DNA of 64,000 nt from Blasia pusilla. Lineage: Eukaryota. The DNA is taken from positions 38,936,001 through 39,000,000 of the forward strand of contig CM114271.1 in NCBI GenBank assembly GCA_050084515.1, in the 5' to 3' direction. The first letter of the stretch is position 1; each line of letters begins with the position of its first letter. The notes below the pieces were generated by a model. The model saw only the letters and a program-made list of their open reading frames with translations, was not told the origin of the DNA and searched no databases. Positions 6,201-51,900 of the stretch are shown here, piece by piece. The translations under genes and the position numbers were made by a program.

Positions 6201-7600
6201 AAATTGGTTTCTTTGCCGAAGGGACGCATTGTCAAGTGGAGTGGAGAGGTAGAGAACCCTCACCATTTCCCATTGAGACACATGCAACTCACTAGTTTAG
6301 GATAAGGAAGGGGAGAAGGAAATCAGGACGGACATAACTTTCAAAAAATTATAGGAGGGCTATCCCTGAACCCCGATTGGCTAGAACATTATAGTTGTCA
6401 GAAAATTGACCCTACTATAGTTGAGCCCCGAGTACAACACAAAACTTCATTTCCCATATTCTCGTATTGCCCTAATTTCTTGTCCTCCCCCAAGAATTTC
6501 TTCCTGTTGTCTTCCCTCCTTCTAAACCCTCTCCGTGATCCGAGATCCCAACCCTCGTCCCAAACCCATGGCTGCATACTGGTTTGGGATAGATAGTCTT
6601 TTGACTAACTCTTGGATTTTTTGGGTGTTGATGAGATCAAAGTTCATCATCAAAAGTGGCCTTAAACCTCTACTCATCCTCAGAGAAAAGTATCTTTCTC
6701 GAAAAAATTCAGGGCAATTAGACTTTTTAGAAAAATCCACCCTAATAATTCTTCCTAAATTTTCATTTCCCTTAAAATTTAAAAATGTGAAATTTTGACC
6801 AATATTAGGGTAAAGAAAGTGGTTGTCATTATGCACTTTTTTAGTCTATCAAACTTGAATACTATGCAATGATCCTCAATACCTACAATTGCATACCTCA
6901 ATTTCTCTATAAACCACTCTCATGTTTCTATGTTTTCAATGGGAGCAAGTGCATGTGCAAGGATGATGACTTTTCCTCTATCATCCAAATTTTTTGCCAA
7001 AATAATTGGGTAGGATACTTTTGATTTGTTGTATAACATGCGTCAAGGGATATAACCGCTGGAAGCAATCCAAAATCCCTTGACACACTAAGGAGTGCAC
7101 AAAAATCCTCTTCAAGATTGTGGTACCATCGTGAGAACTCCACTCAATAATGTACCCATGGTTGGAAGTTTTCATGGGCACCAATAACGTTGGTATCATA
7201 TGGAAAGATTCAACTTGGTTTCCTAGCATCCAATCACGATAGTGCTATCTGCATCTCCACATCAACTTATATTCCCCAATTTTTCTATCATATGAGTTTG
7301 AAATATGTCAATCATTTGTTGACATATTTCAACAATGTTGACCAATGGGAATGTTCCTTCTCTAAGCACGTCCCATCCAACTTCTTATCTAAGATGTAAG
7401 ATGTCTGAACGTGTGAATCTAGCATATGGAAAACTTGTTGCAAAGTATCTTTGAGGGCTTGTACTAGGGAAGTGGTGGTGTCCGACATGTGCATATGCTT
7501 GCCACGGAAATCTTGTGCTTGTGTAGTTGAAATAATTGGCTGCCCATGAGGGCATCTACCACAAAAAGATGTTAAGGAGCATTGATATTTCCCACATGCA
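3280..7600 (-). mobile_element. Degenerate L1-like LINE (ORF1/endonuclease/RT remnants), interrupted by a MITE at ~5.0-5.3 kb
   Basis: Minus-strand frames give RT motifs in the expected order: LLGGSYKK (~4226-4203), QLDF..VD (~4112-4075), AKVV..GEY then SPYF (~3838-3827), FSNDD (YADD-equivalent, ~3786-3772), GMGLVEI..QWLVK (~3690). ORF1-like fragments at 6522-7230 (LGRIIRVDF, VEFSRW). Many stops and frameshifts; boundaries approximate. Confidence 0.7.
5001..5312. mobile_element. hAT-type MITE fragment (CAAGGTTGCAC family), left end eroded
   Basis: GC-rich GGCCC/GGGC interior and GGACATG/GTCC subterminal motifs as in the other copies; ends GTCCGTGTGCACTCTTG, a variant of the family TIR. Confidence 0.65.
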
Positions 7601-8990: not shown

Positions 8991-11900
8991 TACTGGTTGG
9001 GACCTTGCAAGCAACCATGCCATACACAACCCTTAATTAATAACTTCACTTTGTCTACCAATTTAAGACCTTGCTAAGATTGACAAAAATATTTTTGAGC
9101 AAAATTTAATCAAATTGTGAATAGTTGAAAAATACATCTTCTAATTAATATATAAATTAAATCCCAACCGTACATTTCGCCGTTTTTTAATGATGATCCT
9201 CAACAAATATACATGATGGAAAGTCCATCCCAAAAACAAAGAATCAAGTGTCCACGGGTCACAACCGGCCTTGAAAACCGGCTCCATGGGGTCGTTACTT
9301 GTTCCCATTCCTCGCAGATAGCAAAATCAATACACATGCGACACGACATCCTCAAATGGCCAAGTGGATATTCATGCGAATTCCGTCTCTCACTTTTCGC
9401 GATTTCCACCGACGGGATTCGGGAAGCACCCTCTTCGAACTTACGGAGGAGTCGGTCACGTCACGCACTGGCCGTGAAAAGTAGCCAATGGGACGAGGAC
9501 CGGGGTACTTTCATAAATAAGAAGCCTTGTAAGCATGGTCTTATCCGAGAGGAGAGGCCCGGCGATCGGATGCCTTCATGTGATGGGTCTGAAACCGTCT
9601 GACATGGTCGAGCCACTGGACAGTCGTTGAAGGAGACTCACCCACCGCAATTTGCTGTGTCCGTATCGAAGTGGGCCCAGCCCATCATAACGGGGCCTGT
9701 ATCCCCTCATCATCACACCCCAAATCTTGTCACGTGTCAGGTATACCTTTTGCGGTCGTTTCTGCCGTAGTGGCGGTCTTTTCGCGGCAGTACTATACTA
9801 CTATTGCTACTTGTTCTATGTGGGCCCCATGGATGGAGCTCTATCCATCCAAGTTTTGGCGGCAGGTGACTCGTTATGGACGGGAGCGTCTTAGTTAGCT
9901 TTTGGCCGGTGATACACTCAAGTGCTAAAATGTTCAGGCGACAAATTTCCGCTCTCCGTGGAGCCGGAACGGAGGCAAGTAACGAATAAATTGAATCCTT
10001 ATCGCCGAAACGAAAGTATGAGATCGATGAGCTGGCGAGCGGCAATCAAACTTCCTCTTCTATTCTATTCTCGGCGAGCCTATTGGTCAAACATAGTCGC
10101 AATAGCTAGACACCTGTCACCTGTCCTTATGGCGCCAGCTGTCCCAGTCTCTCATGGTGAAGATATTTCCCAGCATTTGCGGTACGTCGATATTTGAGGG
10201 TGGCTTCTATTCCGGGGTCACATATATAATAGATATTTCGTTTGGGACGTCATGGTCCATCGTAGTTTTTAGCACAAATTTATATTATTATTGAAAAAAC
10301 AATTAATTTGTAAATATTTGTAAGAAAATTCCTTCTAAATTATGGGTTTAAACATTTTTTTTTAATTTATGTAAACATGATCTATCCCTCGCTCCCACAC
10401 GGGTTGCTACAATAAACTTACAGTAAGTGATTATCTTAATAAATTTCCGGCTTATTAATCTTCCTACAACTCTCCAAGAGTTTTTTTTTTTTTTTTTCTT
10501 ATTTTTAAATTAAAGATATAAATATAAATTTATTTTATGAAATTAAATTATTAAATTGAATTTTAATAATTTTATTAGTTGAAAGGACCATTGTTCTATT
10601 AAAGGTTGAAAGAACACTCTCTAATGATAATACAAAATCTGTATAAATATGTTTTGTTTATTGGGAGAAGCATCATCCTTAAAAAAATTCTAGTACATAA
10701 TTTAGATGAGATAAAAATTTATGCGAAAAGGAATTTTCAAATGTATAGATTCACATAGTATTAAGTTTGGCCTGTTAATATAAGGAGCAACAATGTTAAG
10801 AGTATAACAATGTTAATATAAGAGTAGACGACGTTGAGGCAAATTGGAAGGGAGGCATGTGCTCAAAAACTCTATTGGTTAGATACGACTTTTCATGACA
10901 CAATTATAACTTAGAAATGTGCATTCCTAAATACACTAAATATATAGGAAGTTTGATAAGAGGATCATTCAAACATTATAGAAATCTGAACGGAAGAGAA
11001 GTAGATAGGATTGGAATGCACGTGTATGTTTCATCAAGACATGACTTAAACAATAAGGTCATCCACATCTTTGTTTCTTCAAGTCAAAATAGTAGTATTC
11101 CTTGAGAAACCTATCCCATGAAACCTTTATGGACGGTTCTCAACTTCTCATATATTGTGTTAAGAAAATCTTTTATCATGTTTATGTTGTAGTCAACTTC
11201 TTATATTGATTCCATGATATCTTCTCCAAAATAAAGGAAAATCGGAAGGAAGACATGTATTCATGAACTTTGTTGAATAGATATAGCTAATCACTTCATT
11301 AGTATATATATATATATAGAGGAAGGTTGAAATTTAAGGGTCATCTTGTAATCCACCCATAAAACTTATGTACATTTGGGACTAAGCCAACATGACATCG
11401 TCCCTAAGAAACTAAGTCAAGAAGCGATATCAAATACAATATATGTCTATTATGCCACCCTCTTGAACATTCATCGTAGATAAGCTTCATGATTGCTCCC
11501 TCGTCAAACCCACATAACATGCATCTTAAGCCCACATGAAGTTAGGAACCACCCCCAGTATTGGATCCACACTCCCATTAATGTTTGGAAGATGATATGG
11601 CTTAAATTTATGCGTATGATACACATTGATCTTAGGAGGAGGAGGAGGATGATTTCCCATATGGGGCACAAACATCCACTACACTAACACCAGTGAGACT
11701 ATCTTAGATACATATGTTTGTGCTATTGTACGACAAGTGTATGTCCACTCGTTATGATATAGAGCATGGAGCATTACAAGGTCATCTAACTGATACGTTC
11801 TTTCCAAATTATAATATGTATAGGCGAGATGTGTTGGCACACCACATGATGGGGGAGTACTTGTCATTGTTCGCTCCATTGAACAAGGACATAGTCAAAG

Positions 11901-12973
11901 GTATTAAGGGCCCTTTACCACTCGCTTGGTTATACATCCAAATCTATCATGGGGTCATCACTTCTTCCATAAGGAGATTGGAAGAAGTGATGATCCCATG
12001 ATAGCATGAACGTATTTGTCCCCTTGTTGTTGTGGTGACTCAAGGAAATGGGAGAGTGATCAAATGACATGGAGATGGGGTTGAGTTGGACTCACATGAG
12101 AGGACCGACAAGCAACATGCTTGGATTCCAAGTCACATTTTTTGAGGCATTTCACACACCATCAATAGTGCCTAGATGATCGATTGTACTTATTAGTGGT
12201 ACAGACCATATGGATACATAAACATTGCGAGGAGTTGGAAAGATGACTTTCCATATTGGCTTAGGTGGAGCCAACGTCAAGTATATAATTGATAATGGTC
12301 ACTGAGGTATATTAGACTCCATTTTTTCTCGCCATGGACTTGGTAACAATGAGATTTTGACCAACTAGGATGTTTTGACTAGCTGACATAATGTGTGAGT
12401 GTGGAGAGGTATTGCCTTTTGTACAAAGATAGTTGGTGTGGATTTGGTGAGCCCAACCTTGAAGCATGCGCTTAGGATATCCCTTATTGATTTGTGATAG
12501 GTTGCACAGTTATGAGGTTGATAGATATGCTAGCTAGATCTAGGATAGAGCAAGCCACGGTGATGCCAAGGGTGGTCTTCCGCTTGGTTAGTTCAACAAA
12601 TACAATATACCATCCATATCATGTTCTACTTGATTCCGGAGCAGAGCCCTTGATGTTAGAGAAGAGATTGTGTTTGGCGTTTGGTCATTGAGGAAATATT
12701 GAGTTGTGTCCCTTCCAGATATAGACCTCAATTGGGGGCATTTCACCCATACAATTTATGAGTGAGCAGGAGTTAGTGCATAAATTCTAGCGAGAGCATG
12801 TATTAGATAGTGTGATTTTGCGCACACGTGCTCCTCCCAAAAATCAAAGATGAACATCATACTTCCCATCAACATCTTATATGACTCTGTTGGGTTCATA
12901 ACAAGGTTGCACACGGACAAAGTCTGTGTTTGTGGACATGTCCCTACAGGCCTGGATACTTGTAGCCCGCCTC

Positions 12974-13654
12974 CAAGGTTGCATATGGAAATATTCCATG
13001 TCCGTGGACTTATGTCCATCCTATGGAAGGACTGTTGGATTCTCAACATCCACTTCTATGAGCACCATTAATCTGATCGGCCCCCTTGTATGAGGAGAAG
13101 CCTAGATTGATGGTTCCGACTTAGACGTCAAAGGAGTCATAGCAATATGACGTAAGTGGTTTATGGAGTAGCGTTACTATGATTATTTGATTTTCTATTA
13201 ATAGACACGATGAAAAATAGGTTAAAAACCCTAGTTTCCCGAGTAGTAAAATAGTGGGGAGGCGCATGCTAGCGCATTCTCGTATGTCGAGTTATCTCCA
13301 TTCAGGTTCCATCGAAGCTCTTGTGAGCGCACGGATGGACTAGGCCACTTTGTATCTCTAAATTTTATAAATATTTCACTGATTTCGTCACTTTCTGTTT
13401 TCTCACAAGGACTTGTCCATATGGGTCCTACCTTTCCCTTCTTTCTCATTCCCCTTAATTGCCTTCGTGTTCCATACTCCCCTCATTTCTTCCTCCCTCC
13501 ACCTCTACTCCCTTCTCCCTCATTGCTCCTCTCATCCTTTCCTAGCCTTTCATCATCGACTAAAATTGTGGGTCCTACCTCTTGGAACCCATGTCCAAAC
13601 TTATCCGTCCATGTCCGTCCTAAGGAAGGACTTGTCCATTTTTGTGCAACCATG
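12974..13654. mobile_element. hAT-type MITE nested in the 12902-13918 MITE
   Basis: TIRs CAAGGTTGCA / TGCAACCATG; perfect 8-bp TSD CCCGCCTC (12966-12973 and 13655-13662); interior matches the reverse complement of 28307-28601. Confidence 0.92.
13033..13407. mobile_element. Solo LTR nested in the inner MITE
   Basis: TG...CA ends (TGTTGGA...TCTCACA); perfect 5-bp TSD AGGAC (13028-13032 and 13408-13412). Confidence 0.85.
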
Positions 13655-14368
13655 CCCGCCTCGCTTGTAACGTGAATATGGGCCCAAAAGCCCGCCCTAG
13701 GTCCCCATAGGGCACACTCAAGGCCCACGGTTGGGCCGGTAGCACGAGCCTTGAGACCTTATAGTGCTAGTCGCGTGCAAGCTAGTTAAGGGCTTATAGT
13801 TGGATCCCTTCCCTGCCAAGCCCGCACCCGTTTCCACTTCCCAAGCCCGCGTGGGCCACTGAGGTGCCAAAAAAACCCAAGAGGGGGACTTGGATATGTC
13901 CATTTCCGTGCAACCTTGGGTCATAATCACAATTGCCTATCGATCAAGGTGACAATCAAATGATGTTTGGGTGAGCTAGTTACACGTTCAAAAATTTAGG
14001 TGTAGTGATGGTCCTCAAGGGGATACCTTGACCACATTGGCAAGTAGTGTTAGCTCACCGAAATAATTTTTGGAGGGGAATATCCATATGAAGGACATCT
14101 TGGTAGAGGATAGTCCCACAATGAGACATGTTATGGTAGGTGTCTCTTCATACGGTTTCAATACCTCTTCACCATTATATATGGGGTACAAGTGTTGACT
14201 TGTAGAGGAGTGCAAATGAGCTCATGAGGCACGTGTGGAGCCAAGCCTTTCTTCTCAAGAAGGGAAAATCAAATAATAAATATATTCCTAGAGTAGAGAT
14301 GTTGGTATCCTTGAGTACCACACCTGTTGTTTCAACTTGTATGGTAGTGTCGAGACAAGGGTGAGACT

Positions 14369-15200
14369 CTAGTAGATCTCTTTGGAGGAATGAGCATAGA
14401 ATTACCTCTAGTTTTGTAGGCCAGTCTACAAAGAAATTGATATCTATATATCAAGAGAGGTGAGATTGCACTACAAGTCTCACTATGCCATGTGGTGAGG
14501 TTGGTCAAGAAATATTTTGATTTTTTATCAATAGTGACAATATGTGGGTACCATCATACATAACCTACTGATATTTCATTGTTTGGGGCGCAAAATTTGG
14601 ATAGTGTTAGCACCATTCATTGAAAAAAAAGTTTATTTCTACATGGCCATGTCAAGGTTATTGATTGGTTGGTTGTTGGCTTGGTTTGCGAGATAGAAGA
14701 TTAAGCATATTTTAGGAGATCCTACGGGTATCATGGTACTTGCAAGAGAGTTAGACATGTTCTCCAATATACATTCAAGAGAATGTGTCGTTGTTAGAAG
14801 ACACTCACGCACCAGTGATGACAACTGTGCATCACATAAAACTTCTACATTAAAGATACTGAAGCAAGCTTATAATGGAATTTAAGGAGAAGTGCACTTG
14901 ATAATGGATGTTATCTTGCATCTAGGGCCAAGATCTTAGGTGATATACTATTTTTTCCTAAGCCAAAAGGATGGAGCACTTGAGGGCACCATTATCTACT
15001 TTGGTGAGTTTTAAGACATTCCATGCCTTTCGTTCGGGAGGACCACGAATTATATGGGATAACCAAATACAAGGACTAGGGCCTATTGTTGACAAGCAAA
15101 AGCACGTGATGGGTTTTCCAATGGGTATGCAAGAGGCATCACGAAGACAAGTGTTGGGTCAAAAAATAGATTTGAACTATCTCATATGGATAGTGAGCTT
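14369..15200 (+). pseudogene. DNMT3-like C5-cytosine methyltransferase domain inside retrotransposon pol (copy A), frameshifted with stops
   Basis: Motif I LVDLFGGMS (starts 14369); motif IV WPCQG (14644-14658); motif VI ENV (14779-14787); motifs IX/X HVMGFP...SRRQVLGQ in ORF 14971-15246. Confidence 0.88.
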
Positions 15201-15459
15201 ACGTTTGGTTGAGCTATATCACATGCGAATGTCATCCATGGTTTAGCACATTGCCTAAGTGGATTGTTGAGGCATTGACTTGGGACAAGAAGATGAGAGA
15301 TAGGCATCCATGAACTTCCTAAGACCTGATTCAAAAAGAGATTGTGAAGGCACACACAGTGGTACATGTTTTTTTTTTTTTAGATGTGGGGCATGATATG
15401 GGAGATCCAAGCACGTTGTTTATATTGAGGTATATAGGATTCTTGAGTTCTAACTAAAA

Positions 15460-16600
15460 TTGTGTCGTGACCCTCATTACCAAATGAATGCTAAGCAAAA
15501 CATGAGAACTCTAGTGGGCTCACGTTAGGATGGTTTGTGCATTGGAGAGGTCTCTTGAAGGAGACACGAGGTGTGAGACACAAAAAAGGTTGAGCATTTC
15601 ATAAATTTATGGTTGCGACTAGGAAATCTGAATTAAACGTGAACTAAGACTTGACAGGAGTCGAGTCTAGGAAGAGTGGCTGCCAAAAAGGTGAGAATCG
15701 GATTTGGAACATGACTAGTGTTTGGGGTTTTGACTATATTTTGGACCATAACTTTGAGTCATGAGACGCGTTTGGGACAAGTAAGGTAGAGGTGGAAAGC
15801 TTATGCAAAGTCAGTTCCAATGTATCAAAGATCTCAACAAACGCACAAGCAGAGGTTGAGAAACTGCCCAAAAATAATTGTGTAGGGAGTTGGATTGAGG
15901 GCCAAAAAGAGAGACCCGAGAGTATTTTCCCAAAAGATAGGGGGAGGGCGGAGAACCCCGAAAGTACTAGTAAGGAGGAAGGTCTCAAAGAGTGCTTGGG
16001 ACTCGAACCCCACATTGGGGCGGCGCGGGGCGAACTAAGGGCACAAAATGGATCGGGAGTTTGTCCTTGGGATTCGGAACCAGAACCAAAAGTCCAATAC
16101 ATTGGATTTTTAAGTCACTTTTGGATTCCAACCCAAAAATTATTTAAGTGGATCTCAGTTAGGGGCTCATGAGAGTTCCATTGGACAGTTGGGGCCGCCA
16201 GACATGCAACCATCATTTTAGGTGCCTCGACTATCCAGAAAGTCTATCCCAAGTCTCGGAAGACTTGTTTGTGTGGGGAAGTGAGGAACTAGGAAGGTTG
16301 AGCTTGATGAAGTACTGAGTTGAGAATTGGATAAGTTGAAAGACTGATTGACCCAAACCGGACTAACGTGAGTATGTTTGGGTGTAGATTAGCAATGAAA
16401 GTATGTCCTACTGAACTTACATTTCTACAACACTAGAAATTGACGTACAAGAAGAGTAGGTGCACGAAAAACTGAATCTTCTTCCTTGAGTAAGGTCATA
16501 ATGGAGACTTGGAAGGTTGAGGTAGATCTCGAGTTAATAGGAGGAGACAGATGTCGAGTTCGATGATTCTTGAGAGGATATATGAGTTTTTTTTGTCTTC
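15460..16600. mobile_element. Probable nested LTR-derived insertion between the MTase and RT of copy A
   Basis: Starts with LTR-like TGTCGTGACCC; no pol motifs inside; 16295-16430 resembles 30245-30385. No TSD found. Confidence 0.4.
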
Positions 16601-18483
16601 AACATGAGGGATATGGGTACTTTGAAGGATCTTGGTATATATATAGATTTGGCTAGTGATACATCAATCTTCCGTTGATCCTACAAGTACTTTGATATGG
16701 AGAGAGCCTTGATTCAGGGTAGTAGTTAAGACTTTTGAGAGGCGAGATTGGTAGAATTATTGCATGGAGAGTATGAATATGCCACAATCATGCTAGTGAA
16801 TAAGGATATGTATGGTAATTGGACATATAAGTGACTATGTGGAGATTATCGTCCTATCAACCGCCAGACGAGCTCGATGAACCAATACGCCATGCCTACT
16901 CTTTAAGAGAATTCTTATGTGATTGGGCATGCAAAGATCTTCATTACTTTAGATCTTTGTGTTGGCTATCTTCAACTTCATAGCAAGGGTGAAGACATGG
17001 AGTGCAAGGAAAAGATAAAATTTGGGGGATAAATAGGTTTGGGAGAGATTCTTTGTAGTAGTGTCAATTCTTACCAATTGGGTTGAAAAACATCCCTACA
17101 TAGTTCCATGGGGTCATGGATAGGATTTGAAGTATGTGGTTTGAAGTATGTAAGAAGTTACATTGATGATATTATCAGCTTCAATCCATAATTGAGAAGC
17201 ATGAGCGACACTTGGAGGAGATGTTTTGCCAATTGCAATTACATGGACCTGAAACTTCATCCACGCAAAAGCAGATCCTTTCAAGATCAGATTGAATACA
17301 CCCTCAAATATGCTACGCCCTATAGATGTAAGTCGAGTGTGAGCATTTCTATGATTAATGAACTTCTATCTTCAATATGTTAAGGGTTTCAGTGTGATCG
17401 CAAAATCTTTGACCTTGTTTACTAGACTTGTTTAAATGTGGTATTACTGTATTGGGAAGATGATCATGAGCAAATTTTTTGGATTACAAGGATAGGTTGA
17501 CTTCCTCGCCTATTTTACGGAGATGTATGAAGGATCATCCATTCCAATTACATATGGATTGGGGTATGTTGGGTTTAGAAGTTGTGCTTATTGAAAGAGA
17601 CAACAAGTAAAAAGAATTCATTGTGCCTCATGCAATTCCATAGAAAAATATTGTAGCAGGAGAGTGTTACCTAGGAAATGTGCAAAGGGTTGGATGTGAC
17701 ACTTGGAAGTCATCTACTTCCAAATGACCATAATTCCAATAACTAATTCCCAAGAACCAACTTTACAGGTTTGTTAGCAAACATCCAGTGAGAATATCGG
17801 CCCACTATTTTATAGAGGATTTTTTACTCCGGATTGACATTCAATTTTCCATATAGGGGCTTCCCGTAGAAATACCCTAAGCCAAGTGCACAACATTCTT
17901 TTCCCATGATTAAAAAAAAAAAACAAGCATTATGGACGTGAAGACTCAAGAAATGCTCGCCCGCCCACCCACAACTTGCCAGGGCCGACTTTGGGAACAT
18001 CCCACGACACCAAGTCCCTCCCATGTGGGGAGTTGCTTCGCTCGCGCTCAATATAGTGACCGGCCCTTAACGGTGACAACAAGGAAGAGCGAGGACAGAT
18101 CTCTATAAACGACAAAAGACGTTAACCTCAGAGGCTCAGATAAAGGCGGTCTGGTCTTGGAGGTCGGTCAAAGGAAAGTAGGAAAGTACACAACAGTCGA
18201 AAAGATTTACTAGTGTTTACTTCCACTTGTGCGTACGTGTAATTGACTACCCTCCTGTCGTCGCCGCCGCTACTGCCCGAAAATGGCGCTTGTCCTCCGG
18301 CTTTGGAGGTTTGGGTGCTGTTTCCGGCTTTTGTGGGCCACCACCTCAGATGTCGGGAGGAGCTGCTGGTGGTGGCTGTGAAAGAAGGAGCTTACCATAC
18401 TTAGCTGGACTATTTATTAGGGCTGTACTGACTTGTATTCTCGTTTTAGCGAAGCTAAGCGAACGCGTTTTAGTCGTTTTCGT

Positions 18484-19200
18484 TGTCCAGTTGGGGGGTG
18501 AGAGGATAGCCACTCACGATGCAGTGCGGGATATCATGTTCAATATTGCTCGGGAGAGTGGCTTCCATGTGCAGAGAGAGAGGCACTACTCCATGCGGGA
18601 TTCCCTCATTCGTGCCGATCTCTACATGACACGTGAGGCTGAGGTGGTGGTGGCGGACGTGGTAGTCACAGATCCTACGTGGGAGGCAGTGCGAGCCCAA
18701 GTGGTGGCCCAAGGGTGAATGCTACAAGGAGCGGCGGCGGCGGCGGCGGCGAAGAAGACACATATCTCTGATCGACTACACGAGGACACATCTTCATCCC
18801 CCGGCCATAGAGATGTATGGGGCTATGGGGGGAGAGGTTCGACTTCGTTCTTTACGGATGCGCCCATCATCTCCACTCGAGAAATGGGTTGTCCTTAGCT
18901 CTGCGATTCAGTATTGTAGGCGTGGTCTCCATAGCGTTAGCGTGCCCAGGCTAATGGGATTTTTGCGGCGGGCTCGGTATGGGGAGACGCCGGCGCTAGA
19001 GGCCCACTTAGTAGTAGTCATAGCTCTCTTGTTGTTGCTGATATTGTCTCTGCTTTGTTGGTGAGTTTAAAGTCGTTAGGGGGAATGCCCCCTTCTTCCT
19101 TTTCTGGTCTTGTTGTGGCCTTCAGGTTTTGACTCTTTGAGTCCCCCTCTTTTGTACTTCCGATGGGTTTTCCATCACTCGTTTTTATCGAAGTGCATCT
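18484..19200 (+). mobile_element. 3' end of a CRE-clade non-LTR retrotransposon (RLE endonuclease domain plus 3' UTR), copy 1
   Basis: GGERIATHDAVRD...RE...RADL...DVVVTDP...EMYGAMG RLE signature; near-identical to 35450-36155. Confidence 0.82.
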
Positions 19201-20249
19201 TTTTGTTTTTCTAATCAATTTTGTTATTGGTCAGGTTTGCTATTCACGGTTGCACCCACTTCTGTTATCATTTTAGTGATCTTCCAACTTTGTTAGTAGC
19301 CGTTAGATGCATTCGATAATATCGAATGCATCTATTCACCATAAGATGGACGGAAATCATCATTGTGTAGAAAAAGGATTCTCTACATCCAATAATTTAT
19401 TTTTCTAAAATAATTTATTTTTCTCAATCAAAATTGAGAATTCCAAAAAACTTAATTAAAATAAATAAATGTAGACGATGGGGAAATTTAGGAAGGAGAT
19501 TTAAGAAAAATTTAAGGAGACAAGAAAAAATTTATTTAAAAAAATTATTCATGAAAAAGAATTAAATAAATAAATTTTTATAGTTATATTCCATTCTCTC
19601 CTATGCTTAATAAAGAATAATATTAAAAGAATTCAAGTGTGAAAGGCATTACACATGGCAAGCACAAATAACTTGTGAAGAAGGAGGCTAACACAAATAA
19701 TAATAAAAGTTAAGGTTATGTTGACTCTTGTTTTGGTTTATATGATTATTAATTGGTAATCCAATATTTTTGTGTAAAACCTATTTTTGAGGAAAGTAAA
19801 ATAAAGCAATTAAAAAGATAATTTTCTTCATAATTTTAGTGTGAATTCCATGAAATGATTTGGTTTTTCTCCAAACCAAGATGGTCCAATTTCTACTTCA
19901 AAAATAAATAAATAAATAAAATTTTATGTTTTATGTTACTAATATGAAATATACTCTATATTCTTAATAGAAGATGTGCTTTTTCAACAAATTTTAATTT
20001 TGGAATATCACTTCTTCAAAGAATTTACAAAAAAATATTTGGATGAGAAAAATATATTTATAGAATGAAATATTATGAGAATTAGTATATTCTATTAACA
20101 AAAGATGCCCCTTGATGAGGGTGATTTCATTGCATGACTCATAATTTATTATAAGATTTCCAAACATATCTATTTTATGAGCAAGTGCACAGCGTTTCAA
20201 ATATTATTGGAAATTTCTCATACACTATGCATTTACAATAATATCTTGA

Positions 20250-27162: not shown

Positions 27163-27614
27163 CAAGGTTGCACACGCACAAAATCCGTGTCCGTGGACTT
27201 AAGTTCATCCTTAAGAGGGACATGTCCGTACGGGCTCTAGTATCCGCATCCTGCACCCAAGCCCATCCTTGAGCATGCATTGCATGTAATGTAAACGTGG
27301 GCTTGGCAACCCACACTCGTTTTGTAGCCCGCATTGGCCCGTAGGCTCATGCATGTAGGCCGGCCCGTAGCCAGGCCTACATTGTAGGTCTGAGCCTGCC
27401 CAGCCGCGGGCTAATATGGGCTTGGGAGAGCTCTATAGAGACTAGGCAAGGGCTCATAGCCAACACACCTGTTCGATCCTTGCCTTGCCAAGATCGCATT
27501 GTTTCTTGCTTCCCAAGCCCGTGCGGGCCACCTAGGTGCCAAAAAAACCAAGACCGGGAACCCTTTGGGCATGTCTGTCCCTTACACTAACTTTTTCATT
27601 TATGTGCAACCTTG
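27163..27614. mobile_element. hAT-type MITE, complete
   Basis: TIRs CAAGGTTGCAC / GTGCAACCTTG; perfect 8-bp TSD ATCTTAAC (27155-27162 and 27615-27622). Confidence 0.93.
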
Positions 27615-28306: not shown

Positions 28307-28601
28307 CATGGTTGCACAAAAATAGACATGGATGGACAAGTGTGGATATGGTTTGCAAGAGGTGAGACCCACACTTATAGTTCATGATGGAAGGCAAGAC
28401 AAGGTCAAGTGGGGCAATAAGGTGGGATGGAGTGGAGGTGGAGGGACAAAAAAATGGGAATATCGAACACTAAGGTAAGTGGGGGGGATGAGAAAGAAGG
28501 GGAAGGTGGGGCCCATATGGATAAGTCCTTCCATAGGACATACGTAAGTCCACATACATGGACATATCCATGGACACCGAATTTCTTCATATGCAACCTT
28601 T
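28307..28601. mobile_element. hAT-type MITE, complete (short subfamily)
   Basis: Ends CATGGTTGCA / TGCAACCTTT; perfect 8-bp TSD CTTCTCAA (28299-28306 and 28602-28609). Confidence 0.9.
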
Positions 28602-29125: not shown

Positions 29126-29940
29126 CAAGGTTGCACGAAAACAGACAAGTTCGTCCATGGGTTGGACATGCCCAACGAATCCCCTGCCTGCCCCTCGAGG
29201 AAGGCCGCCATATAGAAGTAGGCACATAATGACTTATGGATGGAGGTTTGATAGGTAGGGCAGGGGGTGACACGACTATGTTGTAGCTAGCGGGCGATCA
29301 TAGATTTTTACCAAGTAGGGATGAAGTTGAACAACTTAGTCGAGAAATAACGTGGTAGGGATATCCAATGTAGTAAGAAAACTACCATGATAGTGGGGCC
29401 AACAAAATAACCTCCTATGTGGTAGGAGACTAATTGGAGAGTAGGTCATGTGACTTGGTTTTGTGGCTTAACTCATGGTTTTCTATTGAGCCTATGAATT
29501 TTTCCATTGTAGTTGTTTTTTGATTTTGGTGAGATGCAATGGCCTATCAAGAGTTGTTAATTTAGTGTTGAATCTCTTAGTACATTGCAAACCTATGTTG
29601 AGAACTTGAGATGAGTAATCTCCATCGATGGTTCACGAAAAATAGAAATATGGTGATACAAGTGTCGATTCCAACGGGTAGTCCATATTTGTAGATGGGA
29701 GGAGGTAGATAGGTGGTGTGATTTCCAAGAGATTCAAGACCCAACGTAGTTCAACCCTTTCATGGCATGGCCAATGTCAAATCAACATTGCGGGCGGGAT
29801 GGCCAAGCTTGGATCTACGTTGCGGGCGGGGTAAGCTCAGATGCGGACCGCGTGTACTCAGGCCCCCATGGACATGTCCATGTCCGTCCTAGAGACGAAC
29901 ATAAGTCTGCGAACACGGACTTTGTTCATGTGCAACCTTG
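29126..29940. mobile_element. hAT-type MITE ends flanking unrelated sequence (rearranged or composite)
   Basis: CAAGGTTGCAC at 29126 and GTGCAACCTTG ending at 29940; the flanking 8-mers do not match. Confidence 0.6.
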
Positions 29941-32794: not shown

Positions 32795-33982
32795 CTACAC
32801 CTCCACAGAACAAGAAGCCCGCACTAATCCGCTGAAGTCTGATTCCGAATTGACAACCTCCCACTTGCCAACCCCTTCGACATCCAATCGGCGCTTATGA
32901 ACAGCAGACTTGTTTCGGTCTCCGGAGTCCGGAATGGTCATCAAAACCAAGCTGTCGCAGATGGCAGTGGCACAAATGGCAGTTGCGCCATCGAGTGGTA
33001 TGGCATCAACGACTGTCCAGAGGTTCTTCTCGCTGTCGTAACGCATGAGATTATGTTTTTGAATCGCATACAGATTGCCCTCCCACAGCGTGAAAGGGCC
33101 GGGGCTCACCCTCTCCATCCACATATCCTCAAGCCTGCTCCAGCGTCCGCTCACGGGATCATAAATCTCTGCACTGGAAACAAACTGCCCTTGATTATTG
33201 TTAGAATAGCCACTGATCACCAGCACCTTCCCGTCCAGAGCCACCACTCCACATTCGTCCCGCTCCTCGCTCATGGGAGGCAGTTCCTCCCACCGATCCT
33301 CGTCCACGAAGTAGGCTTCGGCAGAAGCCAGTGCATTCTTATTGTCATCGTGCCCTCCCGCCACAAAAACATTGTTACCCATGATTCCACATCCGAAGAA
33401 TGACCTTGCACTCGACATGTCGGTCCCGCGCTTCCACGACTGCGTGGAGAAGTTGAACACGTAGACCGTTCTCAGGGCCTCGTATGTGCTAGGATGCCAG
33501 CCTCCGAGCAGTACGAGCTTCCCATTGAGACCGACGCAGCGACAGAACACAGGGAGACCCTCGGGGAAATCGGGAATGGGAGGCAACCTCGCCCAGCCTT
33601 TCTGCTTCCAATCGTAGATGGTCAACCCGAACACAGGAGCTGAGGCGTGCTTCCCACCAGCAGATGGATCATTGAAATCCGGTTCAGGGAGCGCTTGCAC
33701 AATGCACAAAAGGTTCTGCGTCGCACCCACTCGCCGCCGTTCCTCGTAGAAATTCTGGCTGGTGACAATGTTATCCCACTTGCGGCAAACGCCTTGTAGC
33801 TGAGTGAACACCGTGTGGGAAACGCGCAGCAAGCACTCGAGGGCGATCTCTTCCGGCAGACCGGGGATCAGGTCTTGGATCAGAGTTTCCTCGCCGAGGT
33901 CTATCTCGTCCAGCAGATCCGTCTCCTCAAGCGTGTCGTAGTCCTCGTCCATCTCCAAATCCCATATCATATTCATCGCCAT
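32795..33982 (-). CDS. F-box/kelch-repeat protein (KFB/KMD/SKIP20-like subfamily), single exon, 395 aa
   Basis: Intact ORF with F-box LIPGLPEEIALECLLRV and kelch repeats (LVLLGGW, ARSFFGCG...VFVAGGHD, ERDECG...VISGY...AEIYDP...W). High-GC coding composition. Confidence 0.96.
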   Translation of the reverse strand: MAMNMIWDLEMDEDYDTLEETDLLDEIDLGEETLIQDLIPGLPEEIALECLLRVSHTVFTQLQGVCRKWDNIVTSQNFYEERRRVGATQNLLCIVQALPEPDFNDPSAGGKHASAPVFGLTIYDWKQKGWARLPPIPDFPEGLPVFCRCVGLNGKLVLLGGWHPSTYEALRTVYVFNFSTQSWKRGTDMSSARSFFGCGIMGNNVFVAGGHDDNKNALASAEAYFVDEDRWEELPPMSEERDECGVVALDGKVLVISGYSNNNQGQFVSSAEIYDPVSGRWSRLEDMWMERVSPGPFTLWEGNLYAIQKHNLMRYDSEKNLWTVVDAIPLDGATAICATAICDSLVLMTIPDSGDRNKSAVHKRRLDVEGVGKWEVVNSESDFSGLVRASCSVEV

Positions 33983-34917
33983 CTTGAAAACTCGTACCCT
34001 CCACCCGAAAAGAAACTCGCAAGTTCCAACGGAACCAGAAAACTTCCGGACGTTTCAAGCGCTTCGTCTCCGACTTCACGGCCCCTCACGACCGATTTCG
34101 ATCAGTTAACTCCCCCAACTTTCAGGATCGCTCCACAGCAAAACTCGATCAAATTCACTCCCGCACTACCTGCAACCACCGCACCCGAATCACCCACAAT
34201 CCACCGTCTCTCTCGCGAACACGAACGGATCGACCACCACACCCGCGACTATATCCCCTCCTCGCTTTTTTTCTTTTCCTTCGCTCTGCACACCACACTT
34301 CCTTCTCCGGTATTCAAGATTCCAATTCGCGGAGTGCAGGCGAATGCGTGTGATGGCGCACGGTACTATAGTGCACAGAGCTCGCTTTGCAGCTTTCGGA
34401 CCAACTGGGGAGGGAACCAGGTCAACAAGAAGTTTCTAGTCCTGCCTTGCCTGGCAGCAGCCTGAGAGTTAGCGTGTGAAACAAGAGGCCGGATTCGCAC
34501 AGTCCAATAAGCTGGCGGGCGCAGATAGATTAATTACCGGCAGCTGCTGTGGGTTTTATGGTTTTATCCCCCTTTCCTGCCCCAGCGGTCAGGAAGAAAA
34601 CGATGAGATAAAATACAGTGGAATCTATCCACCTTGCTCGCCGGCGACCTCATCCGCCCCGACAGGTGTCGCTTATAACGGTGATAGATCCTCGTGCTGA
34701 CTAGGACGATTGGCCCCAGCACCACGCGTAATCCGGCTGTTGCAGGAGAGGCATCGACACGTTGAAGTATCAGCTCTGGAGCGAGCGAGTTGAAATAAAT
34801 AGATCAGGACGAACAGTGGCATTGGCAACTGCAGCGTAGGATGATAGGATCGATCTATCCCACTTCTTTACTTTCCGCCGATATCACTCGTAACGCGCCA
34901 GTCATCCTCTCGTCCTC

Positions 34918-36155
34918 TTGCGGGCCCGCCGCGTCCGGCCAGTCAGCCAGGTGAGGACGCCCGTGAGGCGCCGGTCGGACGTACGGCCGATGTCTAGGGT
35001 TTCGATCGTTACGAGAACGTCTGCGGGTGCCTCGGACTCCCTCGACGCTGAAGCACCAGATTATTATAGCGGTAACGGCAACTGCGCCATCCGTTTCCTT
35101 ACTAACATCCGCATTGTTACTCGGCTGCTCGGGAAAGCTCGAGTATCCTCTCTCCGTTATCTTTTCTCCGCTTTGCTTTCATCTCTTCTCATGCATTCCA
35201 ACGGTGATTTCAAGTTACTTCCGAGTTCCAACGGCTTCACTTTAATTTGCTTGCGTGCGTCACATGTATCGTATCCAGACGCCTTTGTTAATGATTCCGT
35301 TCCTCGCGCCTCGTTGGAAAACCTCGCTTCCACATCCACAGCGATGCGGTTCCGCTTGGGCTTCCCCCAACCATCGGTGGTTGGTTCGACACACTGCGAG
35401 TGTCGCCGGAGCCTGGATCCACTTGGTGTGCATTTGGCACGCTGTCGATTGGGGTGAGAGGATAGCCACTCACGATGCGGTCGCGGGATATCATGTTCGA
35501 GTATTGCTCGGGAGAGTGGCTTCCATGTGCGAGAGAGAGAGGCACTACTCCATGCGGGATTCCCTCATTCGTGCCCGATCTCTACATGACACGTGGGAGG
35601 TGGTTGTGGCGGACGTGGCGATCCTGAGATCCTACGCGGAGGCGTCACGAGCCCAAGTGGTGGCCCAAGGGCGAATACTACAAGGAGCGGCGGCGGCGGC
35701 GGCGGCGAAGAAGACACATATCTCTGATCGACTACACGAGGGACACATCTTCATCCCCCGGCCATAGAGATGTATGGGGCTATGGGGGAGAGGTTCGACT
35801 TCGTTCTTACGGATTTGCGCCCATCATCTCCACTCGAGAAATGGGTTGTCCTTAGCTCTGCGATTCAGTATTGTAGGCGGCGGGTCTCCATAGCGTTGCA
35901 GCGTGCCCAGGCTAATGGGATTTTTGCGGCGGGCTCGGTGGGAGACGCCGGCGCTAGAGGCCCACTTAGTAGTAGTCATAGCTCTCTTGTTGTTGCTGAT
36001 ATTGTCTCTGCTGTTGGTGAGTTTCGTCGTTAGGGGGAATGCCCCCTTCTTCCTTTTCTGGTCTTGTTGTGGCCTTCAAGTTTTGACTCTTTGAGTCCCC
36101 CTCTTTTGTACTTCCGATGGGTTTTCCATCACTCGTTTTTATCGAAGTGCATCTT
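34918..36155 (+). mobile_element. CRE-clade non-LTR retrotransposon 3' portion (CCHC knuckle plus RLE), copy 2
   Basis: MRFRLG...CEC...D.LG.H...C knuckle, then ERIATHDAV, and RRRVSIALQRAQANGI. Ends at the same point as copy 1 (ATCGAAGTGCATCT). Frameshifted; 5' boundary approximate. Confidence 0.82.
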
Positions 36156-43283: not shown

Positions 43284-43569
43284 TTTTAATCATGCCTTTT
43301 GTTCTTCTCTTCCATCTATATTATTATTGGAAATCCTACATGCGTAACAAGATAAAATACTAACAAACTTCCAATTTGGTTCTTTAATTGATATTTGACA
43401 TTTTGGGATAGGAAGATGAATTTGAATAGAAGAAAGAAATCATTTCAACACCAATTTCGACAAATGTGATGTTTTAGAAAACCCGGTTTTGTTCTAATAT
43501 GATTATTAGCACAATAGGACATAGTGTAATGGGAGTACAACTTAGATTTTACCCTCTTTGTCAACCATG

Positions 43570-44420
43570 TTTATGGTTTAGGGTTTAGGGCCTAGGATTT
43601 AGGGTTTATAGCTTAGGGTTTAGGGTTTTTGGCTTACGTTGTAGGGTTTAGGGTTTTCGGCTTAGGGTTTAGGGTTTATTGCTTAGGTTCTAGGATTAAG
43701 GGTGTTTGGCTTAGGATTTATGGCTTTTTGCTTAGGGTTTAGAGTTTTTGGCCTAGGGGCTAGGGTTTAGGGTTTTTGGCCTAGTGTTTAGGGTTTATTG
43801 CTTAGGTTTGAGGGGTTAGGATTTTTGGCTTAGGGTTTTTGGCTAAGGGTCTAGGCTTTTTGTCTTAGGGGTTAGGATTTAGGGTTTTGGGTTTATTGCT
43901 CAGGTTCTAGGGTTTAGGGTATTTGGCTTAGGGTTTTGGGTTTTTTCGCTTAGGGCTTAGGGTTTTGGTTTACGGGTTAGGGTATAGGGTTGTTTGCCTA
44001 GGGTTTAGGTTTTTCCGCTTTAGGATTAGGGCTTAGATTTTTGTCTTAGGGATTAAGGTTTAGGGTTTTTTGCCTAGGGTTTAGGGTTCATTTCTTAGGA
44101 GTTAGGATTTTCGGAATTTTGGCGTAGGATGTAGGGTTTATTGATTAGATTCTAGGGTTTAGAGTTTTGGCTTAGGGTTTAAGGGTTTTTGTTGAGGGGT
44201 TAAGGTTTAGAGTTTTTGGCCTTGCGTTTAGAGTTTTTGGCTTAGGGGTTTATACCTTAAGGTTAGGGCTTTTGGCTTAGGGTTTGTGGTTTATTTTTTC
44301 TTGTCTAGGCTTCAAGAAAGGGTTGTAGAATTTTTTGGCTAGGGCTTAGTGTTTAGGTTGTAGGCTTTAGGCTTACTAATCCCTTAGGGCTTACGGTTTG
44401 AAGGATGTAGGGTTTAAGAT
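43570..44420 (+). repeat. Interstitial degenerate telomere-like (TTTAGGG/CTTAGGG) array
   Basis: Dozens of TTTAGGG, CTTAGGG and TTTTTGG variants over about 850 bp. Confidence 0.92.
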
Positions 44421-47730: not shown

Positions 47731-47771
47731 TCGTCCATCTTTAACAATGCAGGATGCGGTAGGCCATATGA

Positions 47772-48521
47772 CTAAGTTCCTTTCAAGAACCTTGTGGCGT
47801 GTAAGACAGCTCGTGATGTTGGTAATGAATACGCCAACATGGTGATCCCCCAGTCTTTAAACACCAACTTTGGATTGACGTAGTGAACAATTCCCTCTTC
47901 GATATTTAGACATCCATCGTTCTCTGTAAGTTGCACTGGTAAAAGCATTGATTCCGTATGACCAATCATGGGAATTGCAACTTGTACGTCGGTGGAGGTA
48001 TTGCAGGCTGAGTGCTTCTTCTTCCTAATATCCATGGTATCATTGTATTTTTTTGTAATCAGATATATGGGATATTTTGCAAATATTCCCAACATATCTT
48101 GTGGCCCTCTTCCATCCAGGTGGGTAGCTGGTTGGTAGTATGACTCATCAACTATTACGCACATCCACGATTGCCGTTGGTTGTCAAAGAAGGACAAAGG
48201 TTGGATCTCATGTGAATCAAAGCTTTCGGCAACACGCTCTGAACCAATAAGAAGCTCTGATCCCGTTGAATCTTTTAAGAAAACTTTCTTTGAATATTGT
48301 GTGGGGCAATGAGGCTCTCCTTCCACATCCTTGCATCCAACACTTGTATTAGTTGTTGTAACTCCATTACGAGGCCATGTGATGAATGCTCCAATGAAAT
48401 CGGACAGAAGTGCTCCATTGTAAGTGCTTGTTGAACTTCCGAAGACTTCCTCCAGAGACATGTACAAGGACTCCTTACCAAGTGGTATCATGTGGACTAT
48501 TCTCTCGGAATTGGTGTCCAT
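47772..48521 (-). pseudogene. Transposon-associated ORF upstream of the Sola-like transposase; Tnp1/En-Spm-associated-like motif
   Basis: VHMIPLG...SLEEV...LSDFIGAFITWP motif, with a weaker second copy in the same ORF. Confidence 0.35.
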
Positions 48522-48689
48522 GATTCTAGCTCTTCCAACAGATATGGATGATCAATCTTATAGATATCCTACATCACCGATGCAAAATTCCATTGCATCA
48601 ATGTGAAATCTGCGCCATAACATCAAAGTGGCAATTAATTGTTAGCCATACACCGAATGGGAAGTGGGAAAAAATTATAATCATCTTAT

Positions 48690-50348: not shown

Positions 50349-51109
50349 TGAAGTCAGTTTGAGGTTATCGATCCGTGCTCTTTCGTCAATCTCAGCCATT
50401 GGTTTTCATAACTGATTGAGGAGTGGCTTGGATGATTTTGACACATGCAATTTTGATCTAATGCGCGATATCTTCTCTTGACACGGATCCTGAATCTGTG
50501 ACATCCAAATTTGAATTTTGAAATGGATGCGAGTATTAGGTTAAGTAACGTTGGTGTGCTGACATGGATCTAATGTGGACCGCTAGTCGAACATCGAGTC
50601 TGTCATGAATGACAAGTATAAGTAGCAACATTTTCCCAAATCAATTTTTTGCTATCAATCTCTTTGCACTGGAGGTGCACAACGCTTGCTCTGCAAGTGA
50701 GGCAGAATGTGAGCGCCCAATTGTTGATCTTTTGTAGGTCGACGCGGAAATACAATCGTGAGGTTCTTTTTTCTTCTCCTTCCGAATGCAACACTTGTGT
50801 TGTTGTCGATCTGGTCTACGGTGGAGTTCAATAGGAGTTCATTATGATGTCAATTGCGGCAGGATAGAAAATGCCTCTTGGAGGGTTTCAGATACTATGA
50901 CTTCTGAGCCTAAAGGAAGATCACTTGTCAAGGTTTAGGGTAGAGAACGACATCTTTGCCAAGTTTTTTCCAATGTGTATTCGGCGCGCAATGCGCCAAA
51001 TGCCTTGGCATTGTATCTTGATATTCGTAAAGGGAATACAAGGATGTTCTAACATTCCTATTGCTCAAGTCATATAACTGATTTGAAAATCCAATGCGAA
51101 CTGTCGCAC

Positions 51110-51900
51110 ATGAGAATCCCATACAAGCCCCGGACCACCTTCTCTGTAGGCATGTGACGAGGGAAAACTCACAAATGTGGGTAGTGCCATCCTAGGCTGG
51201 CCCACACGGTTCACCATTGCCATGGGTGACCGATCAATAATCCTCACCACTTGAGAAAGTCACCCAGTATCCAAGATACTATCCACGGTAAGACAAGGAT
51301 CCCGCTGCACTGCATCATATGCTCGACGTAGAACCTCCCTAGGCAACAAGTTTGTCCACCACAAGCGTGGACGATGTGCACGCGAGCCAACTCATGGCAC
51401 GCATCCAACAACAGCTGGTCCAATCCAAGACCGCACCTCATGAACACTCGCCATCATCCGGGTCCGAGTGTCACCCAACAATGGAACATTCTCCAGAATG
51501 TAAGTTGGAGCACGTGCCTGATGAACTTGAAGATGTCGTAACACCCGTAACATCTCCCAAAACAATCGAGACCTAGGGTCGTGTAATCCCTCACCACGAC
51601 CTGCATGTGTATGACCCTGACATGGCCATCCATCAATCATCAAATCCACAGGATCAACCCTCTCAAGGTCCTACGCCCCCAACAATGCAATGTGTGACGG
51701 CAAAGCACGTTGGTACCCACGAATAGCTGATGGTGGCAACAACTCAGGATATCTCCGCATCAACTGACCAATATGTTGGGATGAGACTCTCTGGGCCGTC
51801 TCATCTTGCTCCACATACACGTATCTCCGACAGAATAATTTGCAGACCAAACCGGTGCTAATCCCACCAAAGAGATCTAACACGCAAATGCCCTCGGATC
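51110..51900 (-). pseudogene. DNMT3-like C5-cytosine methyltransferase domain (copy B), truncated before motifs IX-X
   Basis: Motif I VLDLFGGISTG (starts 51883); YVYVE; motif IV DLMIDGWPCQG (~51646-51614); SRLFWEMLRVL; motif VI ILENV (51499-51485); motif VIII GSRAHRPRLWWTNLLP (~51388-51341). Confidence 0.92.

Follow-up and report, generated by a model that had tools for sequence, protein, structure and literature searches.

Retrotransposons that carry a cytosine methyltransferase run counter to the view of DNA methylation as the host's weapon against transposons. Earlier reports of such elements concern dinoflagellates and one charophyte alga, Klebsormidium nitens (PMC5890265). In the parts of that paper available to us, the algal element KnitGypsy-Dnmt3 is described as having Gypsy domains together with repeats "the same as that of a DIRS retrotransposon", a layout that the figure legends give as A-coding region-B-A-B, and its ratio of nonsynonymous to synonymous substitution rates (Ka/Ks) is stated to be below 0.2. 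The accessible text of a further study places some DNMT3 proteins in retrotransposons "in streptophytes" (PMC12344493), and a preprint, as far as its available sections go, treats the streptophyte Gypsy-DNMT3 elements as a separate acquisition (bioRxiv 10.64898/2026.05.21.726589). Here, we analyze a stretch of 64,000 nucleotides from Blasia pusilla (GenBank assembly GCA_050084515.1, contig CM114271.1, positions 38,936,001 to 39,000,000 of the forward strand; hereafter the window). It contains two diverged copies of an element encoding a DNA methyltransferase (DNMT): copy A at 12271-17634 on the plus strand and copy B at about 56040-51098 on the minus strand. Judging by its collinearity with polyproteins of related elements, copy A is very probably the dead remnant of a Ty3/Gypsy-type retrotransposon of the streptophyte Gypsy-DNMT3 kind, with the architecture of that family, in which the DNMT lies between the protease (PR) and the reverse transcriptase (RT).

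Results

Window positions 12271-17634 (+) are collinear with Marchantia and Sphagnum polyproteins in tblastn comparisons, the grouped matches reaching E values of 1e-12 to 3e-51. Coverage runs along residues 513-1260 of the polyprotein P0001 and then along residues 723-1029 of P0008, which gives the order gag-PR linker, protease, DNMT, RT, and RNase H. The aligned pieces are interrupted by 29 in-frame stops and shift frame at least 9 times, and the region is without a long open reading frame (ORF). A previous reading made from the sequence only had recognized this element and placed it at 12490-17660; the element stands, but its start does not, as homology begins about 220 bases earlier.

The 5′ limit of detectable homology is a piece of the gag-PR linker at 12271-12411, which aligns with P0001 residues 513-558 and has three in-frame stops. 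The aspartic protease follows at 12515-12901, with the active-site context VLLDSGAEPLMLEK at 12623-12664; residues 591-706 of P0001 align to 12515-12832 at 40% identity with three stops, and the protease has a tblastx match to copy B and no Pfam match. Its C-terminal part and the PR-DNMT linker occupy 13919-14350, marked by the family stretch AYRPGW.SGDGR...LPVRF and by a match of residues 813-873 to 14155-14331. The DNMT3-like C5 cytosine methyltransferase lies at 14351-15243 in four frame-shifted pieces along P0001 residues 866-1210, with residues 866-965 on 14318-14617, 969-1037 on 14635-14841, and 1117-1210 on 14983-15243. It retains DLFGG at about 14375-14389, PCQ at about 14647-14655, ENV at 14779-14787, MGFP at 15109-15120, and SRRQVLGQ at 15139-15162, so that motifs I, IV, VI, IX, and X are recognizable; motif VIII is mostly gone, and 6 of 234 aligned codons are stops. 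The left part of the DNMT-RT linker (15244-15448; P0001 residues 1213-1260 on 15236-15394) is separated by an insertion, described below, from the remainder of the linker and the RT at 16503-17299 (P0008 residues 723-914 on 16592-17299). The RT contains CGDYRPIN at 16838-16861 and YIDD at 17159-17170, with 8 stops when these are read through as X. The end of the RT and the first part of RNase H occupy 17316-17634 (P0008 residues 939-970 on 17316-17411 and 977-1029 on 17476-17634), where the element is truncated. A six-frame scan found all motifs that the sequence-only reading had quoted for the two copies in the frames and places it gave. No gag match was detected upstream of 12271 at E 0.1, and tblastn with family polyproteins gave no integrase match anywhere in the window; copy A is therefore truncated at both ends. 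Past its 3′ end, the remainder of RNase H, the integrase, and a terminal repeat are all missing.

Two insertions are nested in copy A. The first, a non-coding DNA-transposon derivative of 1017 bp at 12902-13918, lies exactly where it had been placed before. It is bounded by a perfect 11-nt inverted repeat, CAAGGTTGCAC at 12902-12912 and GTGCAACCTTG at 13908-13918, whose motif is also repeated subterminally, and it is flanked by the direct repeat GGTTCATAA / GGTCATAA. Relatives of it are found within the window at 28325-28530 and 27471-27559. Directly after it, copy A resumes with ...AYRSR*QSNDVWVS*LHVQKF, which corresponds to AYRPGW.SGDGR.S.LPVRF of the family. The second insertion, of about 1 kb, had been given borders of about 15460-16600; its presence was borne out, but the approximate borders are better set at 15449-16484, between two copies of the 7-bp direct repeat CTTGAGT (15442-15448 and 16485-16491). 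This unclassified insertion has no terminal inverted repeats and no relative within the window. The linker reads ...AHTVV..DVGH up to about 15394 and continues as ETWKVEVDLELIGG from about 16503, and the Sphagnum protein P0019 reads ...AHAVGGETWEPLIGPKLIGG unbroken across the same place. Excision of the insertion leaves a linker of about 65 nt, compared with about 70 nt in L017, one of the moss loci introduced below. The ratio of observed to expected CpG is 0.63 in the first insertion and 0.58 in the second versus 0.33-0.45 in the coding parts of copy A, as would be expected had the insertions arrived later. Copy A would have decayed in place, gaining stops and frameshifts and losing CpG before the two insertions of about 1 kb landed in it, and the locus itself, a dead fossil, has no function. 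Just 3′ of copy A begins a 707-bp sequence (18495-19201) that recurs in direct orientation at 35451-36155, 94% identical and 16.95 kb away. An intact 419-aa F-box/Kelch ORF (32798-34054, minus strand) lies between the two, so the pair may be separate copies of a repeat and not the long terminal repeats (LTRs) of one element. Judged by this ORF, the host belongs to the streptophytes.

Relatives of the element are found in Marchantia, Calypogeia, Sphagnum, and metagenome contigs. A first protein search gave 22 proteins, 15 from Marchantia polymorpha, two each from Calypogeia fissa and Sphagnum, and three unnamed, and a second added four Marchantia entries. A scan of metagenome contigs yielded at least 296 relatives among the 599 candidate stretches listed, and 80 loci were retained. 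Since locus L003 and the Sphagnum fallax protein P0019 agree completely over 141 aa (100% identity), we read these contigs as moss DNA. Eight of the loci, L073-L080, were rejected as intact bacterial or phage Dcm-like methylase genes with 24-25% identity and were excluded from the family counts. Two metagenome proteins, P0184 (2327 aa) and P0189 (2138 aa), are each encoded by one uninterrupted ORF and show the Pfam order zf-CCHC, Asp_protease, DNA_methylase, RVT_1, RNase H, Integrase_H2C2, and rve. In moss locus L017, a single frame enclosed by terminal repeats extends from gag to RNase H, and integrase matches are present in L017, L003, and L040. These single-ORF and repeat-bounded relatives uphold the claim of a long-lived family in which the DNMT forms an integral part of pol. 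The proposed order PR-DNMT-RT-RNase H is likewise upheld: several moss sublineages, with DNMTs only 30-50% identical to that of Marchantia, all keep the arrangement gag-PR-DNMT-RT, in part followed by RNase H and integrase.

These relatives display the features of Ty3/Gypsy elements to a large extent. In P0184 and P0189, the integrase follows the RT in the order PR-RT-RNase H-integrase, and a gag with a CCHC zinc knuckle, identified by Pfam, lies upstream of pol; relatives also have TG...CA termini and a short target-site duplication. Two identical flanking LTRs are absent from the moss relatives, which have split repeats instead. A Dnmt3-type DNMT in frame within Pol, and the combination of DIRS-like repeats with Gypsy domains in the moss relatives, are features of the streptophyte Gypsy-DNMT3 elements. 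The tyrosine recombinase of DIRS elements is absent from P0184 and P0189, which carry Integrase_H2C2 and rve.

Copy B is less decayed. Residues 1-1148 of P0001 align by tblastn to 54179-51098 (-) at 56-77% identity, covering gag, protease, and linker and stopping in the DNMT just short of motif IX. The protease motif VLLDYGAQPLMLEK is at 52627-52586 (-). Homology stops at 51098/51099 after ...GPGLVWDSHVRQ, so that only motifs I to VIII are kept and motifs IX and X are missing, as the sequence-only reading had noted. Pfam recognizes the DNMT (PF00145, E 3.3e-10) in the ORF 51392-51670; the gag ORF has a CX2CX4HX4C knuckle by eye and no Pfam match. The A repeat found at the 5′ end of moss elements has a homologue at 55842-56040 (-), with blastn matches of 70-74% identity to the A repeats of L003, L040, and L017; the moss terminal 17-mer, which would mark the exact 5′ terminus, is absent near these positions. 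Directly behind the truncation, at 44759-48551 (-), lies a run of ORFs, one of which (45844-46353) matches DUF7869 (E 2.5e-31); this may be what remains of another mobile element that cut copy B.

The two copies show no match at the DNA level at E 1e-10 and are collinear at the protein level in PR and DNMT. No repeat pair flanks either of them in a self-comparison of the window. That copy A is the older one, as had been suggested, is supported by its longer end branch in the DNMT tree (1.04 versus 0.2 changes per column), its lower CpG ratio (0.33-0.45 versus 0.63), and its greater number of stops, copy B having 3 in 265 aligned codons of the DNMT. Identity to the moss loci at the DNA level is 72-77% over about 2.8 kb for copy B and 66-69%, in the RT only, for copy A. 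In the DNMT tree, both copies fall into one 11-row clade with Marchantia, Calypogeia, and Sphagnum rows, with a Shimodaira-Hasegawa-like approximate likelihood-ratio test (SH-aLRT) support of 97; copy A is therefore of the same subfamily as copy B and only far more decayed. At 29699-29791 (+), 31 aa with one stop also match the family's conserved motif at the gag N-terminus at 48% identity; this may be a third, tiny fragment of the family or part of a related element.

To place the methyltransferase, we compared P0001 with the Protein Data Bank (PDB) using phmmer. The best 25 of 27 matches are DNMT3A, DNMT3B, and DNMT3C (best E 1.7e-8); the other two are M.HaeIII and an entry named only "DNA methyltransferase". 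An AlphaFold model of a single intact moss DNMT domain (L003:11105-12145, from a 36-row alignment) had a mean predicted local distance difference test (pLDDT) score of 92.1 and a predicted template modeling (pTM) score of 0.91. Among the PDB matches listed by Foldseek for this model, the best are DNMT3A/3B/3C catalytic domains, with an E value of 2.9e-19 and a target template modeling score of 0.81. Motifs I (FxGxG), IV (PCQ), VI (ENV), VIII, IX, and X occur in this order in the family, and a comparison of 12 members shows little or no variation in the motif I Phe, PCQ, ENV, and AHR.R..WTN. By sequence and predicted fold, the domain is a DNMT3-like C5 cytosine methyltransferase, and the conserved motifs make catalytic competence of live family members likely.

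Constraint was assessed with dN/dS ratios calculated according to Nei and Gojobori, skipping stops. Among moss copies, the median ratio is 0.55 for the DNMT (628 pairs), 0.41 for the RT (64 pairs), and 0.71 for the PR (210 pairs); these ratios are inflated by neutral decay after insertion. Comparison of copy B with 40 moss copies gave a median dN of 0.184 and a median dS of 0.841 (finite in 36 of 40) for the DNMT, corresponding to a ratio of about 0.22, and comparison with 23 moss copies gave a dN of 0.256 and a dS of 0.669 for the PR. The dN/dS estimate between copies A and B that the sequence-only reading had proposed carries little weight: dN is 0.495 and dS is 1.52 over 185 codons of the DNMT, which is saturated (ratio about 0.33), and the PR gave no numerical value. 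As far as these alignments tell, the DNMT evolves like the other pol domains.

A second arrangement of the same domains emerged from a search of 1.84 billion representative proteins with a moss DNMT, which gave 3063 matches at E ≤ 1e-3, 754 at ≤ 1e-10, and 225 at ≤ 1e-30. We classified 302 proteins with domain probes (blastp, E 1e-5), 297 of which had a DNMT match. In 48, the DNMT lies after gag/PR or before the RT (type 1), and in 184, it lies after the RT or RNase H (type 2); a further 65 match the DNMT probe alone, and none conflict. The ratio between the types is biased because one search was seeded with a type 2 query. Most type 2 proteins, including P0031, P0044, P0056, and P0270, are arranged as RT, RNase H, DNMT, integrase, and PHD finger (RT-RH-DNMT-INT-PHD). 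Only P0270 has an organism name, Haematococcus lacustris, the others being from metagenomes and transcriptomes. P0031 shows RVT_1, RNase H, Integrase_H2C2, rve, and PHD in Pfam and the DNMT at residues 768-1091 by BLASTP. Between the layouts, identity is 35% over 324 aa of the DNMT and 36% over 518 aa of RT-RNase H, and a PHD match also follows the integrase in L065, a moss sublineage of type 1.

In the DNMT tree, one branch splits the layouts into 34 type 1 and 45 type 2 rows (SH-aLRT 97), the latter drawn at random from 182. Likewise, one branch splits the RT-RNase H tree (SH-aLRT 99), whose 52 rows comprise 12 with the DNMT before the RT and 40, chosen from 123, of the other layout. The position of the domain would therefore have changed once, as read from unrooted trees, with the DNMT traveling together with its RT. 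The RT of copy A falls within an 8-row set of DNMT-before-RT rows (SH-aLRT 99).

Among the moss elements, L017 and L040 have the layout A-coding-B-A-B, with A1 at 6926-7248, B1 at 15701-15815, A2 at 15820-16132, and B2 at 16129-16243 in L017 and A1 at 1328-1664, B1 at 11785-11900, A2 at 11904-12240, and B2 at 12238-12353 in L040. B-A-B also forms the 3′ ends of L031 and L043, and in L003 the contig breaks off after B-A. A single B (A-coding-B) is found in 8 of the 13 loci with a plus-strand B (L006, L013, L014, L016, L018, L024, L032, and L038). These may be products of recombination between B1 and B2 with loss of A2-B, or a second integrated form. Moss elements start with TGTCATG and end with GCAC(A/G)ACA, and a G-rich tract precedes B1. 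Flanking 4-bp repeats match in 4 of 4 positions in L040 and L038 and in 3 of 4 in L017 and L014, so that L038 and L014 retain the duplication despite their single B. In the window, the moss terminal 17-mer has one match with three mismatches, at 30117, which 21 of 100 shuffles equal, and the 24-mer has none.

Transcription was examined in three RNA-seq runs with the same species label as the best DNA run, using a sample of about 6-12% of each run and aligning reads to 50900-54500 at ≥80% likeness. On 51021-54500, 1161, 853, and 1464 reads were found, nearly all of them 80-99% alike and only 9, 10, and 8 at ≥99%. Depth is 15-90 across this interval and about zero below 51021. The first mate lies on the plus strand about 10- to 100-fold more often than on the minus strand, a bias that in most stranded libraries points to minus-strand RNA, the sense direction for copy B. 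Past the truncation at 51099, 27, 39, and 43 reads run on with sequence that differs from the window; read manually on the minus strand, their consensus encodes VEPNADERE, with which the DNMT of the family continues. Paralogues that keep the C-terminus of the DNMT are therefore transcribed, and copy B itself shows little or no transcription. Reads and window differ by many indels, which mark defects of copy B's own. The commonest fixed difference is T in the window for C in the reads, in roughly half of the 40 best-supported rows; this excess fits C-to-T decay, and the overall counts of the kinds of change are roughly symmetrical. In one DNA run, 66,589 contig pieces align to copy B at ≥80% likeness; this is not a copy number, and it weakly suggests the many copies of the high-copy family that had been proposed.

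The remainder of the window contains a tandem array at 43551-44319 with 14/21-nt spacing and 30 overlapping copies, a 207-bp satellite with at least six units at 62700-64000 that runs off the end of the window, and a 230-aa ORF at 61466-62155 (+) with a weak BTB_2 match (E 1.8e-4), which is possibly a fragment of a host gene.

Discussion

That the PR-DNMT and RT-RNase H parts of copy A might stem from two adjacent elements meeting at 15.4-16.5 kb is suggested by the gap of about 1.1 kb between DNMT and RT, by the lack of terminal repeats bounding copy A, and by the lack of an RT in copy B. Removal of 15449-16484, however, restores the expected linker, and both halves match the continuous sequence of the family; the RT groups with RTs of elements that have the DNMT before the RT, and the same order occurs in intact single-ORF relatives and in repeat-bounded moss copies. 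We consider such a chimera very improbable. Because the linker is continuous across the second insertion, the relatives share the order, and the RT lies in the DNMT-before-RT set, we take the RT to belong to the same element as the DNMT; this was also the point on which the sequence-only reading had said it could fail. Fragments of a host DNMT3 gene or pseudogene invaded by pieces of retrotransposons would likewise explain a DNMT3-like domain, and some relatives are named "DNA (cytosine-5-)-methyltransferase" in databases. Yet 232 of the 297 DNMT-matching proteins also match retroelement probes, no PWWP or ADD domain is found among the Pfam results examined, and the gag-PR-DNMT junction is common to both copies, to Marchantia, Calypogeia, and Sphagnum proteins, and to many metagenome loci, which makes a host gene scarcely credible here.

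What the domain does in live members of this retrotransposon family is a separate matter. Since L017 and P0184 have gag and pol in one frame, the DNMT would be synthesized within Gag-Pol and reach the particle along with RT and integrase. There it would methylate the element's new complementary DNA (cDNA), or else the fresh insertion, so that new copies would arrive already bearing the 5-methylcytosine mark of the host. By analogy with the proposal made for related elements (de Mendoza 2018, PMC5890265, in its accessible text), we put forward tentatively that methylation of its own cDNA or fresh insertions may be the role of the domain. Alternatively, the DNMT could be conserved for another activity: on RNA, as a structural or DNA-binding module, or on host chromatin. 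The DNMT of SymbioLINE failed to methylate DNA in yeast and RNA methylation was raised, whereas SymbioDIRS-Dnmt3 methylated CG in yeast, as reported in the available parts of the same paper. In the present family, the catalytic Cys (PCQ), ENV, and the S-adenosylmethionine-binding motif I are conserved, and the predicted fold matches DNA-bound DNMT3A/3B structures along its length; we regard these other roles, taken together, as unlikely, though to be reckoned with.

The earlier argument that the position after the protease would allow cleavage and packaging is weakened, because the sister group has the domain between RNase H and integrase, so that its position is not fixed; packaging would follow simply from presence in a Gag-Pol fusion. 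Ty3 has a PR-RT spacer ("J"), and cleavage usually occurs at the PR|RT and RNase H|integrase borders. If these borders apply here, both positions of the DNMT would be spots that tolerate and release an extra domain. The PHD finger of some members may read histone tails at the target.

Several observations weigh against the assignment of copy A or against what is built upon it. No piece of copy A reaches the Pfam cut-offs: its DNMT and PR pieces have no match, and the read-through pieces score 20.1 bits for RVT_1 (cut-off 29.6) and 24.3 bits for RT_RNaseH_2 (cut-off 29.8), so that its domains are assigned by their similarity to family members. Each window copy is missing one or both ends and has no integrase or open frame, and function can therefore not be read from the locus itself. 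Most moss copies are dead as well; among stretches covered at least 85% by a single high-scoring segment pair, only 2 of 40 are stop-free in the DNMT and 2 of 13 in the RT, and 3 of 24, a set that includes the window, are so in the PR. The dN/dS ratios of the moss copies are well above the <0.2 of Klebsormidium, and that between copies A and B is saturated. The trees are unrooted and hold only the two DNMT-bearing layouts, without Gypsy RTs from elements lacking a DNMT or canonical DNMT3 sequences; to be inside a clade therefore holds relative to the sister architecture only. Finally, the RNA reads show transcription of paralogues and not that any transcript has an open frame.

A wider reading of these data is that both layouts belong to one ancient green-plant lineage of integrase-bearing Gypsy elements with split repeats, which would have captured a DNMT3 once and moved it once within pol. 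The domain would lie after the PR in a bryophyte-type branch and after RNase H, along with a PHD finger, in a branch that includes a chlorophyte. If this were so, members still transcribed in land plants, including Marchantia, could add transposon-encoded de novo methylation to bryophyte genomes. Taken as a whole, including this last consequence, we hold the idea to be rather doubtful.

Comparison with known systems

The two DNMT positions and the split ends with a DDE integrase matter to annotators of repeats and to surveys of the DNMT gene family, as several such polyproteins are named plainly "DNA (cytosine-5)-methyltransferase" in public databases. Compared with the catalytic domains of host DNMT3A/3B, which are the best matches by sequence and fold and whose AHRARYFWGN (DNMT3A) resembles the AHRxR.WWTN of the family, the domain is only about 21-24% identical, lacks the PWWP and ADD readers in the Pfam results examined, and is part of a retroelement polyprotein. 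The RT-RH-DNMT-INT-PHD polyproteins are homologous along the whole DNMT and in RT-RNase H, and differ in having the DNMT after RNase H rather than after the PR. The EpiLTRs and DAM-LTRs are likewise Ty3/Gypsy-like with DNA methyltransferase modules; according to the available text, however, their DNMT is sister to DNMT4 and forms a 3′ extension of pol along with an adenine methyltransferase and a chromodomain (bioRxiv 10.64898/2026.05.21.726589). SymbioDIRS-Dnmt3 of Symbiodinium shares a Dnmt3-type DNMT in pol, the A-coding-B-A-B layout, and a variable order of pol domains, as far as PMC5890265 could be consulted, but has a tyrosine recombinase; the present family instead combines a DDE integrase with TG...CA termini and 4-bp target duplications. 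In the literature searched, we found no description of the RT-RH-DNMT-INT-PHD layout or of split repeats combined with a DDE integrase. Full-text searches likewise yielded no description of DNMT-bearing Gypsy elements in bryophytes, copies of which may be listed in the supplements of PMC5890265 and PMC12344493.

The closest known system is KnitGypsy-Dnmt3. As described in the accessible parts of PMC5890265, it shares with the family a Dnmt3-type DNMT inside the Pol ORF, the Gypsy domain composition, conserved catalytic residues, a streptophyte host, and possibly the reported purifying selection on the DNMT. The A-coding-B-A-B layout of the moss relatives is the strongest link to it, though an indirect one. 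It differs in its Ka/Ks of <0.2, which is lower than the values found here except for the cross-species ratio of about 0.22, and in its host. Searches by protein name and word index gave no relatives named as Klebsormidium, and the likeness is to the published description only. Elements of the same kind are now seen in land plants, namely, in the genome of the window, Marchantia, Calypogeia, and Sphagnum, and since paralogues are transcribed in the species of the window, the role of the DNMT becomes testable in genetically tractable bryophytes. The two DNMT layouts and the split repeats with a DDE integrase were not found in print, and we class the window element as a new land-plant member of the known streptophyte Gypsy-DNMT3 kind.

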